NCBI GenBank assembly: GCA_041666745.1
Contig: JBAYGI010000001.1
Span: 91,095 to 155,094, forward strand
Direction of reading: 5' to 3'
Source of the DNA: Candidatus Magasanikiibacteriota bacterium
GTDB lineage: Bacteria > Patescibacteriota > Patescibacteriia > Magasanikbacterales > GWA2-37-8
Length of the DNA stretch: 64,000 nt
Numbering within the stretch: position 1 is the first letter of the stretch; each line of letters opens with the position of its first letter. The position numbers and the translations under genes were made by a program. The notes under the pieces were generated by a model. It saw nothing but the letters and a program-made list of their open reading frames with translations. It made no database searches and was not told the DNA's origin. This document shows, one piece after another, positions 3,487 through 58,002 of the stretch.

Positions 3487-3511
3487 GATTCCCGTTTTCA
3501 CGGGAATGACA
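3487..3511. repeat. hairpin-ATGACA motif copy a (gattcccgttttcacgggaATGACA)
   Basis: 6-bp stem tcccgt/acggga with loop tttc. ATG is the start of the PIF1-like gene. Confidence 0.7.
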
Positions 3512-4753
3512 AAAATCATGAACCAATCCCACGCCCTCAAAATTCTCAAATCCGGCGACAATGTTTTTCTTACCGGTTCCGCCGGTTCCGGTAAGACATT
3601 TTTGTTGAACCAATTTATTGACTATTTAAAAAGTAAAAAAATAAAAGTTGGGATAACCGCTTCCACCGGTATCGCCGCCACTCACTTGAACGGCAGGACT
3701 ATTCATTCTTGGTGCGGAATGGGGATTGCCAAAAAGATGAACAAAAAGCAACTTAAAAAAATATTAAGAAAGGAAGAGTTGTTTGAAAGAATAAGAAAAG
3801 CATCTGTTTTGATTATTGATGAAATATCCATGTTGGATGCCGATCGTTTGGATTTGGTGGACAAAATTTGCAAGGCGGTGAAAAATCCATTTTTTCCGTT
3901 TGGTGGAATTCAAATTGTTTTATGCGGAGATTTTTTTCAACTTCCTCCAGTAAGCAAAGATTCTCAATTTGCCTTTCATGCTTTTTCGTGGAAAAACTCC
4001 GGTTTCAAAGTTTGTTATTTGGACGAACAATTTCGTCAGGATGATGCAAACTTTTTAAATGTTTTAAATAAAATACGCGCCAATGAGGCGGGAGAAAAAG
4101 AAGTAAATATTTTAAAAAGCCGGCTATACGAGCCAGTCGCGCACGCGCCTATTTTGACAAAACTTTATACGCACAATATAAATGTGGATGCCTTAAATTA
4201 TTTTGAATTGTCAAAAATTTCGTTGGAAGAAAAAGCATACCAGGTTAAAGAGAATGGTCAAAAAGAACTGGTAGATTTTTTAAAAAAGAGTTTTCCGGCT
4301 GTCCAAGAATTAAAATTGAAAGTCGGCGCGGTGGTGATGTTTATAAAAAATAATTTTGACGCCGGTTATGTAAACGGCACACTTGGAGAAGTGGTCGCTT
4401 TTGATGCCGACGGCTATCCGGAAGTTAAAACAAAAAACAATGAAACAATCATTGCCACGCCGATTAGTTGGAATTTTGAAGAAGATGAAAAAGTTTTGGC
4501 AAGTATTCGACAGGTGCCGTTGCGGTTGGCATGGGCGATAACGGTGCACAAAAGCCAAGGGATGAGTTTGGATGCGGCGGAAATAGATTTGTCAAAATCG
4601 TTTGAACGGGGGATGGGCTATGTGGCTTTGTCGCGCGTGCGAACTTTGAACAGTATCCGTTTGATGGGTATAAACGAGATGGCTTTGAAAGTGGATGAGA
4701 CGGTTGTGAAAATGGATAGGGAATTTAAAAAGTTGTCGAAGAAAAATAGATAG
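3506..4753 (+). CDS. PIF1/RecD-like ATP-dependent DNA helicase (AAA_30)
   Basis: Walker A TGSAGSGKT, Walker B IIDEISM, QLPPV motif. Start ATG is embedded in the conserved hairpin-ATGACA motif at 3487-3511. Confidence 0.8.
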   Translation: MTKIMNQSHALKILKSGDNVFLTGSAGSGKTFLLNQFIDYLKSKKIKVGITASTGIAATHLNGRTIHSWCGMGIAKKMNKKQLKKILRKEELFERIRKASVLIIDEISMLDADRLDLVDKICKAVKNPFFPFGGIQIVLCGDFFQLPPVSKDSQFAFHAFSWKNSGFKVCYLDEQFRQDDANFLNVLNKIRANEAGEKEVNILKSRLYEPVAHAPILTKLYTHNINVDALNYFELSKISLEEKAYQVKENGQKELVDFLKKSFPAVQELKLKVGAVVMFIKNNFDAGYVNGTLGEVVAFDADGYPEVKTKNNETIIATPISWNFEEDEKVLASIRQVPLRLAWAITVHKSQGMSLDAAEIDLSKSFERGMGYVALSRVRTLNSIRLMGINEMALKVDETVVKMDREFKKLSKKNR

Positions 4754-4760
4754 AAAAAAT

Positions 4761-5396
4761 ATGCTCCAAACGATAAATCTTCCACCATCCAAACGCATTT
4801 TTGACATTGCAGTGTCAATTTTGTTATATTTATTATTTTTGCCGTTGATTTTATTTATCATCATCTGGATAATTATTGAACAAATTTTTGTCAAAGAATC
4901 TCGTGGGTCATTTTTATATTCTGAAAAGAGGGTTTCGCAAGGAAAAGTTTTTAATTTTTACAAATGGCGAATATTTAAAATGAAAGCAATCGCCGAGGCA
5001 TTAAAAAATGGACGTATAATTCACACCACCGACTTACAACAAAATCCGGAAAATATTACTTATTATGGCAAGTTTCTCAAAAGAATATACATGGATGAAT
5101 TGCCTCAACTGTGGAATGTGCTAAAAGGCGACATGACTTTGGTTGGTCCGCGTCCGACAAATTTGGAAAATTCGGAAAACATGAAAAAATCCGGAGACCT
5201 CACTAGAGAAGTAATGGTGTGTGGAATAACCGGACCATTTCAATCACAAAAAGGCCACCACATACAAAACCAATTAAATTTGGATGAAGAATATATTAAT
5301 TTTGTCGCAAATAATCCCGGCTGGAAAGTAGTACTAAAAGATGTTAAAATACTATTACAAACTATTCGGATAGTGTTGGAAGCAAAAGGAATTTAG
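4761..5396 (+). CDS. bacterial sugar transferase (polyprenyl glycosyl-phosphotransferase, WbaP/EpsL-like C-terminal domain)
   Basis: N-terminal TM helix and the hallmark DELPQLWNVLKGDMTLVGPRP motif. Confidence 0.8.
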   Translation: MLQTINLPPSKRIFDIAVSILLYLLFLPLILFIIIWIIIEQIFVKESRGSFLYSEKRVSQGKVFNFYKWRIFKMKAIAEALKNGRIIHTTDLQQNPENITYYGKFLKRIYMDELPQLWNVLKGDMTLVGPRPTNLENSENMKKSGDLTREVMVCGITGPFQSQKGHHIQNQLNLDEEYINFVANNPGWKVVLKDVKILLQTIRIVLEAKGI

Positions 5397-5415
5397 TTTT
5401 TCATCAAATGAAAAT

Positions 5416-56101: not shown

Positions 56102-56896
56102 ATGTCTTTAAAATCACTATCTTTACACCCCAAATTCGCCGGCTTTTTGGATGTGATTATCGGTCTGCTGTTTTTGTTTACCTTGAAGTGGACTTCTTTG
56201 TGGTGGATGTTGTTAATTTTCGTCATCTTGCGACTTTTGTTGTGGATGGTTTTGGTTCGTTTGGTTTATTATCCGGAAAACATAAAACGTTTTTGGCATT
56301 TATTGACTCTGTTGGTTTTTCATTTGGGCACAATTTTGTTGTTGTTGTTTATTGAATGGCCACAATCTTGGTATTTGGTTGGTTTTATTTATTTGCTTTT
56401 CCCTTTCATTAGTTTTTGGTTGTTGCCTTCCAAAAGTGAAGGTCAGTTATCTTTTGTTTCAAAACCATACCGTCGTTGGCGTTTTTGGATGAGCGCGTTT
56501 GGTTTGTTCGGTCTTTGGAGTGGAATTTTTGCGGCGGTATTTTTACAGATTTTAAATATTAGCTATTGGTTTTTATTAGTTTCAGCCTCGATTGTTACGA
56601 CCGCTATTTCGATGTGGTGGTGGAGAGAATACAACATTGAAAAAAATAATCGACTGTGGTGGTGGACGGTTTGCATCGGCGTTTTTATTTTAGAGATTGC
56701 TTGGGTGTTGTTTCGTTGGCCACTTGGATATTTTGCCAGCGCCTTGATTTTGGTTTGGTTTTGGTATGACATCTGGTTGTTGGCTCGTTTTCATTTGTTG
56801 CCGGCCGGTATTCATTGGCCGAAACAAGTTTTATTTTTTATCATCAACGGTATTTTGTTGTTGTCCTATTTAATTTTAATTGTAAAATGGAAATAA
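56102..56896 (+). CDS. Trp-rich polytopic membrane protein, hypothetical
   Basis: At least 8 predicted TM helices. The track ORF start (55910) overlaps smpB on the opposite strand, so the start is more likely the internal ATG at 56102. Confidence 0.45.
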   Translation: MSLKSLSLHPKFAGFLDVIIGLLFLFTLKWTSLWWMLLIFVILRLLLWMVLVRLVYYPENIKRFWHLLTLLVFHLGTILLLLFIEWPQSWYLVGFIYLLFPFISFWLLPSKSEGQLSFVSKPYRRWRFWMSAFGLFGLWSGIFAAVFLQILNISYWFLLVSASIVTTAISMWWWREYNIEKNNRLWWWTVCIGVFILEIAWVLFRWPLGYFASALILVWFWYDIWLLARFHLLPAGIHWPKQVLFFIINGILLLSYLILIVKWK

Positions 56897-56899
56897 TTT

Positions 56900-57967
56900 A
56901 TGTCAATTATCCCTCCTCATTTACCACCTCCGGTTTGTAACATTCAAGATCACCACAGATGGCAGAGAATAAAAATATTATTAGTGGCGGTAGTGTTTGG
57001 TTTGTTGGCCGGCGTAACTGGCGCGTCCATGTTGCTTGGCTGGATTTGGCCCGGATTTGGTGGTGGCAATACTTGGATCATGTCCAGTAGTGTCAACAAT
57101 GTTTCGCGTGATTTGTTGGATGCTCCGACAGTGGCCATGCTAAACGATAGAGTCGGTTCAGTTTATCGCGATCTGTCTGGTGTTTCCGGTTTGAGTTTTT
57201 TGAGTCCGGATAAAAAAATCGGGGATGCGGTTTTTGTTTCTTCCGATGGTTGGCTGGTTTTGTATTATCCAAATTATAGTGGTGATTACAAAAATTGGCG
57301 TGTATTGTTAAATAGTGGTCATTCTTTTACAGTGCAAAAAGTTTTGAAAGATAGTAATTCCAATTTAGTCTATTTAAAAATTAATCCGGAACAGGCCGGG
57401 TCGCAGTTTAAAGTTGTAAATTTTAGTGAGGATGTCAAACAACTGGAAGATGTGTATGTATACAACAACAATACTTGGCACCATACTTTGGTTGCCAATA
57501 AAACCGCCCAATCGTTTCATGTGCCCCATTTGGATTCCGCGCCGAGCACGGTTATCGAATTAAGTGAAAGTTTCAACGAAGGTGACTTGGCGGTAGATTT
57601 GCAAGGAAAAGTTGTGGGTATGGTGAGTGGTGGAAAATATGTTTTGCCAAGTCAATATATATCCAATGTTTTGCCAGGGGTTTTGGGTACACAAAAAGTC
57701 ACCTATCGCACACTGGGAACATACGGCTGGTTTTCCGAACAACAGCCGATTATTGTAAAAAATGAACTAATCGCCGGTTATGCAGTGTCGAGGGTATTTT
57801 TGGACAATTCAAAATTAAAAGCGGGGGATATTATTTTGGAAGTGAGTGGGCAAGTGGTCGGCAGTGATAATTTGTGGTATAATATTAACAACAATCAAAA
57901 TTTAAAATTAAAAGTTTTGCGTAAAGGAAAAATCGTTGAATTTACGCAGGATGTTTTAAGTTATTAA
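56900..57967 (+). CDS. membrane-anchored HtrA/DegP-like (trypsin fold plus PDZ) protein, possibly catalytically degenerate
   Basis: N-terminal TM and C-terminal PDZ-like GDIILEVSG. No canonical GNSGG serine motif recognised. Confidence 0.45.
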   Translation: MSIIPPHLPPPVCNIQDHHRWQRIKILLVAVVFGLLAGVTGASMLLGWIWPGFGGGNTWIMSSSVNNVSRDLLDAPTVAMLNDRVGSVYRDLSGVSGLSFLSPDKKIGDAVFVSSDGWLVLYYPNYSGDYKNWRVLLNSGHSFTVQKVLKDSNSNLVYLKINPEQAGSQFKVVNFSEDVKQLEDVYVYNNNTWHHTLVANKTAQSFHVPHLDSAPSTVIELSESFNEGDLAVDLQGKVVGMVSGGKYVLPSQYISNVLPGVLGTQKVTYRTLGTYGWFSEQQPIIVKNELIAGYAVSRVFLDNSKLKAGDIILEVSGQVVGSDNLWYNINNNQNLKLKVLRKGKIVEFTQDVLSY

Positions 57968-57976
57968 AAAGACTGT

Positions 57977-58002
57977 AGATTCCCACTTTCGTGGGAATGA
58001 CA
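57977..58002. repeat. hairpin-ATGACA motif copy d (compensatory stem variant)
   Basis: agattcccactttcgtgggaatgaca: stem tcccac/gtggga keeps pairing through two coordinated changes. Confidence 0.7.

Follow-up and report, generated by a model that had tools for sequence, protein, structure and literature searches.

The window analysed here is a stretch of 64,000 nucleotides from a Candidatus Magasanikiibacteriota bacterium (GCA_041666745.1, contig JBAYGI010000001.1, positions 91,095 to 155,094 of the forward strand), and all coordinates refer to the whole window. It carries four copies of a short hairpin repeat, named a to d; they stand singly, each in a very short intergenic spacer, with an average distance of about 14 kb between them. 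Read in the orientation of the Neisseria Transformation Sequence (NTS), to which the repeat is compared below, the copies are on the minus strand, and the pattern bearing ATGACA is on the plus strand. Copy a (3484..3511, minus, reading TGTCATTCCCGTGAAAACGGGAATCCAG) is located between a DUF2196 gene that ends at 3465 and a PIF1-like helicase gene starting at the ATG at 3506 or at 3518. Copy b (25064..25091, minus, TGTCATTCCCGTGAAAACGGGAATCTAA) separates the tRNA-Gln gene (24981-25054) from the stop of a C39-like peptidase gene (25123), both of them on the minus strand. Copy c (54496..54523, minus, TGTCATTCCCGTGAAAACGGGAATCTAT) fills most of the 40-nt spacer between infC, with its stop at 54529-54531, and rpmI, with its ATG at 54486-54488. 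Finally, copy d (57975..58002, minus, TGTCATTCCCACGAAAGTGGGAATCTAC) lies between a 355-aa gene that ends at 57967 and a Wzz-like gene.

The first-pass annotation had described these sequences as four copies of a 16-nt hairpin fused to an ATGACA start, and the number of copies was right. The 26-mer AGATTCCCGTTTTCACGGGAATGACA was found exactly at 25066-25091 and 54498-54523, and with one mismatch at 3486-3511 (GGATTCCC in place of AGATTCCC), and 100 dinucleotide-preserving shuffles gave no match to it. The looser pattern TTCCC-N8-GGGAATGACA recovered all four copies, including 57980-58002 with CCCAC/GTGGG, for a chance expectation of 0.15. The hairpin itself is larger than described: the stem has 8 bp (ATTCCCGT/ACGGGAAT, and ATTCCCAC/GTGGGAAT in copy d) and a 4-nt loop, and the conserved unit spans 28 nt, with CTG/TAG-type bases on the left and GACA on the right.

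When folded as minus-strand DNA, copies a to d are each predicted to form exactly this 8-bp hairpin with a GAAA loop, at -7.8 to -9.7 kcal/mol and z-scores from -3.4 to -5.5; copy d reached -5.5 on the minus and -6.9 on the plus strand. Copies a to c read TGTCATTCCCGTGAAAACGGGAATC on the minus strand, followed by CAG, TAA, and TAT, respectively, and these three are identical across 25 nt. In copy d, two adjacent inner stem pairs are altered on both sides and the pairing is kept, so the covariation noticed at first reading is real. Three copies identical over 25 nt and a fourth that keeps its stem through two double changes point to recent spread or ongoing selection.

The core of the Neisseria repeat dRS3, under its 20-nt definition, is ATTCCC-N8-GGGAAT. 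Chenal et al. (2025, Nat Commun, PMC11893778) reported that about half of the dRS3 copies are really a 28-nt oriented element, the NTS (CGTCATTCCCGCGMAVGCGGGAATCYRG), and that NTS-like Ssn-related motifs (SRM) are found across bacteria, flanking a small gene, ssnA, whose product is a single-domain GIY-YIG protein (cd10448). Both binding and cleavage by SsnA need the motif to be single-stranded DNA (ssDNA) and are confined to one strand, which folds into the hairpin. Binding involves the hairpin plus its non-palindromic flanks, and the cut falls on the 5' side of the motif, at a distance of a few nucleotides. Cleavage depends critically on GTC, the triplet adjoining the palindrome on its 5' side, and binding on the C that adjoins it on its 3' side. 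In Neisseria, SsnA lowers transformation, with reduced integration of NTS-bearing DNA. The NTS-ssnA-NTS arrangement resembles an insertion sequence, and mobility was raised there only as a hypothesis. The same study reported that genomes with many copies commonly encode ssnA, and counted Rickettsia and Wolbachia among the SRM-rich genomes; its main text mentions neither Patescibacteria nor archaea (PMC11893778).

In the window, the dRS3 core is present without any mismatch in four of four copies, and so are the flanks TGTC (5') and GGGAAT-C (3'), hence both the GTC and the 3' C. Against the 28-nt NTS consensus, the minus-strand copies present three to four mismatches each, two of which are a compensatory stem pair. 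With this many mismatches and with GTC and the 3' C kept, they are SRM-type variants rather than strict NTS. Judging from their sequence, the four copies are probably hairpin repeats of the NTS/SRM class with a dRS3 core, that is, of the target class of Ssn GIY-YIG nucleases.

We scanned one genome per species (GTDB) with the pattern GATTCCC-N8-GGGAATGACA and analysed 152 copies from at least 119 loci. The motif-bearing loci came from nearly every bacterial phylum, several groups of the Candidate Phyla Radiation (CPR), and one Nanoarchaeota metagenome-assembled genome (MAG). Copies were almost identical everywhere, with the consensus ctgGATTCCCGCyTTCGCGGGAATGACA, and the most frequent 5' flank was CTG (71/152; GTA, 3/152). 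The inner stem pairs were GC..GC in 121 copies, GT..AC in 18, AC..GT in six, and other or non-complementary in seven; thus, the covariation of copy d has its counterpart across genomes, where 145 of the 152 copies keep Watson-Crick inner pairs. Independently of the retrieval pattern, the same loci yielded 411 more copies (16 in shuffled loci), with both-sided changes at each of the eight stem positions. Inverted doublets of the motif occurred in many loci. A scan of metagenomes gave 119 loci with the exact variant, none of them related to the window. The contig with the motif in the Nanoarchaeota MAG (L037), binned as a DPANN archaeon, carries the bacterial-type motif and a TGTCATTCCGAGCG.. 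variant at 1511-1535 and 2742-2755; these copies represent either a real spread to archaea or a binning error.

Beyond the right end of the window, contig L122 holds two extra copies at 17633-17660 and 19628-19656 (window-equivalents ~64536 and ~66532), both in the orientation opposite to copies a to d, which brings the main motif to six copies in ~79 kb of window and flanks. The second of them, ATTCCCGTGAAAGCGGGAAT, has a T·G stem mismatch and looks intermediate between the GT..AC and GC..GC stem variants. The segment between copy d and the inverted copy at ~64536 contains a 1669-aa open reading frame (ORF) without a Pfam hit (59176-64000, continuing to about 64185), preceded by the Wzz-like gene, a DUF5663 gene, and an uncharacterised 69-aa gene. 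Besides, a sigma-70-like near-consensus promoter (TTGACA, 17 nt, TTAAAT; 25092-25125, minus) lies directly upstream of copy b, so the 5' leader of the tRNA-Gln precursor would contain the hairpin. Within the L35 coding sequence of rpmI, ~110 nt from copy c, the sequence at 54372-54391 (minus, ATTCCCGTGAAAA) matches half of the motif and its loop exactly over 13 nt, which could be chance or a remnant.

Which genes accompany the motif was assessed by all-against-all clustering of the 1684 ORFs within 2.5 kb of it in 119 genome loci. The recurrent families were ABC transporters, histidine kinases, SMC and similar proteins, and a small GIY-YIG protein. This protein of ~95 aa, with the motif YVYIL..NGTLYIGVT (PF01541, GIY-YIG), was the sole specific recurrent neighbour. 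We rejected an associated transposase as a candidate, since the clustering gave no transposase-like family. In three loci (L018, L063, and L182), the motif flanks the GIY-YIG gene on both sides in inverted orientation; the order in L182 is TGTCATTCCCGTGAAAACGGGAATCCAG, 32 nt, the GIY-YIG gene, and GGCTGGATTCCCGTTTTCACGGGAATGACA, which is exactly the GT..AC variant of the window. The motif stands on one side of the Ssn-like gene in L079, L213, and L246-L251, and in L189 the downstream motif copy overlaps the gene start by ~10 nt. All the Ssn-like genes beside the motif belong to PF01541 and encode about 95-125 aa.

By profile search, the Ssn-like family has at least 8000 members, and within CPR these include Moranbacteria, Wildermuthbacteria, Portnoybacteria, and Paceibacterota; no Magasanikbacteria label appeared among the homologue matches listed. 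In Moranbacteria/Parcubacteria (L246-L251), CTGGATTCCCGTTTCCACGGGAATGACA follows the Ssn-like gene. In a Paceibacterota MAG (L252, 1200-1590), ruvB and ruvC flank the gene, which is preceded by a degenerate copy and followed by the motif itself. This contig comes from JGI sample 3300037810, and its Ssn belongs to a MAG other than that of the window (accession MFA6094546 vs. MFA65474xx).

The same JGI sample, other than that of the window, provided contig L001, which is 100% identical to the window over 1576 nt and unrelated to it further left. Its exact starting point is C3484, the base with which CTGGATTCCC begins and thus the edge of the motif in copy a. On the unrelated side, L001 carries a second, inverted copy, which makes an inverted doublet of the motif with a 29-nt spacer (586-680), and a gene that we take, reading it by eye, to be DinD/Bro-like. 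By analogy, the junction would resemble the mosaic junctions described for dRS3 and the neisserial intergenic mosaic elements (NIME).

Several observations weigh against reading the copies as an Ssn target in this genome. With three to four mismatches each, all copies fall outside NTS sensu stricto, for which at most one mismatch to CGTCATTCCCGCGMAVGCGGGAATCYRG is allowed. The published, hand-made SRM pattern, HGTCWYN(0-2)YYVSBRHN(0-5)WNVSBRGN(0-2)RNCYNB, missed copies b and d, while it did match a and c, in favour of the assignment (shuffles, 0.14 matches per window). Regular-expression and hidden Markov model searches of six-frame translations detected no GIY-YIG or Ssn gene in the window or in its flanks (10 kb on the left and 4 kb on the right; ~79 kb in all). 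Elsewhere, an Ssn-like gene was present in about 10 of 238 motif loci, in stretches of typically up to ~8 kb, so most copies are far from a nuclease. Moreover, the junction with L001 could be a metagenome assembly chimera formed at the repeat.

If the copies are SRM-type targets, this Magasanikbacteria genome would encode its own Ssn elsewhere, and that enzyme would recognise and cut copies a to d whenever their DNA is single-stranded, for example as incoming transforming DNA or in replication or repair intermediates. In each of the four, cleavage would fall on the minus strand, as the forward strand of the motif, and the copies would owe their spread to mobility linked to Ssn or to recombination at the repeat. 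The window encodes parts of a type IV pilus (PilM, a pilin, and a prepilin peptidase), which would make ssDNA uptake plausible. CPR/Patescibacteria are thought to depend on DNA uptake, and an ssDNA-specific, restriction-like system in them would bear on the handling of incoming DNA.

The strongest competitor to this account is that the hairpins are orphans, left over from an earlier Ssn/SRM invasion or from horizontal transfer, in a genome that now has no working nuclease. They would then be neutral, stable intergenic hairpins that offer, at most, short homology for recombination. The lack of an Ssn gene in the ~79 kb read and the distance of most motif loci elsewhere from any such gene fit this explanation, as do the G·T stem mismatch in the extra copy just outside the window and the existence of degenerate copies of a second repeat, family B, described below. 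Against it stand the three copies identical over 25 nt and the fourth with its stem kept by two double changes. Furthermore, genomes with many copies commonly encode ssnA (PMC11893778), and CPR relatives encode Ssn beside the motif. We regard orphan hairpins as unlikely, while giving them more weight than any other competitor.

Alternatively, a site-specific recombinase or a transposase might use the repeat as its target or point of attachment, with the copies marking insertion hot spots instead of nuclease sites. There is a documented precedent in Neisseria, where the filamentous MDA/Nf prophages integrate into dRS3 via a phage-encoded transposase, and the edge of the motif is exactly where homology to L001 ends, with a gene beyond it that looks, by eye, like a phage-type one. 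Nevertheless, no IS110-type or other transposase family recurs by the motif in the 119 genome loci, and no motif copies mark the ends of the one mobile island of the window (tRNA-Asp, serine recombinase, 44.8-53 kb). Both explanations, this one and the Ssn one, could also hold together. We consider this alternative very improbable.

The island just mentioned (44773-52953) is a probable integrated element beside tRNA-Asp, with a low GC content of 0.32. Its genes encode a large serine recombinase, a rolling-circle Rep (REP_ORF2-G2P), a helix-turn-helix protein, two DNA methyltransferases, and an Mrr-like nuclease. It presents direct repeats of ~100 nt with 88% identity at 44844-44945 and 52852-52953, and a 60-nt repeat at 52141-52200 and 52826-52884.

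The first-pass annotation had named a leader-peptide device, a translational operator, and an element of the REP/RAYT type as options, and the last of these comes nearest. The hairpins would then be repetitive extragenic palindromes (REP) or REPINs, mobilised by a REP-associated tyrosine transposase (RAYT), a domesticated IS200-like Y1 transposase. The general anatomy agrees with this proposal: the repeat is a dispersed, oriented, extragenic hairpin, often in inverted doublets and with a dedicated small nuclease, and GTAG happens to precede copy d. What did not hold was the partner. Neither a RAYT-like nor any other Y1-transposase-like family recurs near the motif in the 119 genome loci, and the published partner is the GIY-YIG protein Ssn, an ssDNase (PMC11893778). 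In addition, the 5' flank conserved across genomes is CTG(G) and not GTAG, and the 28-mer is common to many phyla. REPs are species-specific. A REP/RAYT origin thus appears barely tenable.

The supposed fusion to a start codon has a simpler origin, as ATGACA is the reverse complement of the conserved TGTCAT, and with an 8-bp stem the A and T of the ATG are the last two stem bases. Among the 152 copies, an ORF of at least 80 codons ran from the motif in the ATG frame in nine, in frame +2 in 22, and in frame +1 in none, the last because it reads TGA. We rejected the start-codon fusion on this frame analysis: tabulated against start codons across many genomes, the copies showed no enrichment of the ATG frame. 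The ATG had been read as a real gene start in two copies. The motif does overlap the called Wzz start, but the PIF1 start differs between gene callers, with 415 aa from the motif ATG in L001 and 411 aa from the ATG at 3518 in contig k141_1179167 of ENA ERZ27249449, a 222-kb contig that contains the window. The two mini-ORFs noted beside tRNA-Gln and in the infC-rpmI spacer are present, but on the strand opposite the flanking genes. Overlap with gene starts and mini-ORFs arises because the element sits in very short intergenic spacers, and the hairpin meets ATG start codons only by coincidence.

The genes flanking two of the copies are on the minus strand and those flanking the other two are on the plus strand, so there is no fixed orientation relative to transcription; together with the two inverted copies beyond the window, this fits an element acting at the DNA level rather than the RNA level. 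A replication-strand bias was tried on the basis that the pattern of all four copies is on the plus strand and that GC skew is positive across the window. It was rejected, as the motif strand had positive GC skew in 81 of 152 copies (p about 0.8 per locus) and the two nearby copies are inverted. An RNA-level device (a translational operator, a leader peptide made from the ATGACA mini-ORFs, or a transcription terminator) can practically be dismissed: the hairpin would fold as RNA too and it abuts starts –7 nt before the PIF1 ATG at 3518, across the Wzz start as called, and with its end 8 nt short of the rpmI ATG–, but the transcribed strand differs among copies, the mini-ORFs are on the non-coding strand, the ATG so seldom opens a long ORF, copies b to d lack a T-run after the hairpin on both strands, and an Rfam scan of the window matched only the transfer-messenger RNA (tmRNA) and two tRNAs, with no match at the copies.

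A second and more degenerate repeat, family B, follows the pattern TGTCATYCCGA..GRGGRATCCCT and has four copies in the window. Its ends, TGTCATYCC and GGRATC, are common to the main motif (family A). Two copies overlap in inverted orientation, as a doublet, in the interval from the infC start to the 3' end of the tmRNA (55087-55127, plus, TGTCATCCCGACCGAGTGTCGCAACGAGTGGAGGGATCCCT; 55119-55147, minus, TGTCATTCCGAGCGAAGCCGAGGGATCCCT). This doublet contains gggATGACAAAAAC, the related sequence that had been noticed at the infC start, which is real and turns out to be the end of a family B repeat; the predicted hairpin is poor. The other two copies, both on the plus strand, lie in frame inside genes: one in ligA (36905..36942, TGTCATTCCGACCGACTGAAAGGAGTGGAGGAATCCCT, translated ..CHSDRLKGVEESL..) and one in secA (7978..8007, TGTCATTCCGACCGCAGTGGAGGAATCCCT, translated ..DVIPTAVEESL..). 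Since the left halves in secA and ligA are read in different frames, the similarity is at the DNA level.

For ligA, the comparison with homologues shows added sequence. The LigA protein of the window has nine extra residues at the repeat when compared to solved LigA structures and to its closest homologue (P0126, 77% identity), and the gene has 27 extra nt there when compared to the syntenic locus of that homologue (L254). The same loop of another LigA homologue, P0127, holds a different insert of 12 residues (..CHPEQGEGSL..), one back-translation of which would fit an SRM-like variant. In secA, the copy is in a linker that ranges from 0 to about 30 residues among homologues, and a clean insertion is not demonstrable against them. 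Family B hairpins had no significant stability under nearest-neighbour DNA parameters. Because family B folds poorly, its kinship to SRM is uncertain, and so is the membership of its copies, including that in ligA, in the SRM family.

A broader and more tentative reading is that, in this CPR bacterium, SRM-type hairpins form an active selfish or mobile system and are not only nuclease sites. It draws on the junction at which the context switches between the window and L001, on the inverted doublets, and on family B in frame in the essential genes ligA and secA. Both the copies that lie in frame and the junction at the edge of the motif give a hint of mobility, and they are the parts worth following. 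We think this reading possible, although doubtful. If true, such a system would bring Patescibacteria, and possibly DPANN archaea, into the scope of Ssn/SRM biology, would link that biology to the remodelling of protein-coding genes, and would resemble the Rickettsia palindromic elements (RPE).

At the practical level, a false lead has been removed: there is no new start-codon device here, and the repeat is placed in a class described only in 2025. New here are a near-unchanged NTS/SRM hairpin and motif-flanked Ssn-like genes in CPR/Patescibacteria, and the motif alone in one Nanoarchaeota MAG.

Among known systems, RPE are reportedly selfish DNA inserted in frame in protein-coding genes. Family B shares with them its in-frame copies inside ligA (27 extra nt) and secA, whereas it is much shorter (30-41 nt), has weak hairpins, and gives only a hint of mobility. 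With REP, the bacterial interspersed mosaic elements (BIME), and REPIN, together with RAYT, the main motif has in common oriented extragenic palindromes, inverted doublets, and one dedicated, repeat-flanked small nuclease gene. It differs in that the nuclease is GIY-YIG instead of HUH/Y1, the flank is not GTAG, and the element is conserved across phyla instead of being species-specific.

The neisserial elements are closer. Unlike dRS3/NIME, the window has no dRS3-RS-dRS3 arrays, its copies are single, and the phylum is another, but it shares the exact 20-nt core and a homology break at the repeat edge (window/L001). From the Neisseria NTS 28-mer, the window copies differ by a T for C at position 1, by a GT..AC or AC..GT inner stem, and, in three of four copies, by a last base other than G. 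The host also differs from that of known NTS/SRM, as it is a CPR bacterium (Candidatus Magasanikbacteria) with no Ssn gene seen in ~79 kb. What the window shares with NTS/SRM is the dRS3 core, the hairpin, the oriented flanks (xGTC on the 5' side and C-Y-R on the 3' side), and the intergenic multi-copy spread, and its own stem variant flanks Ssn-like genes in other genomes.

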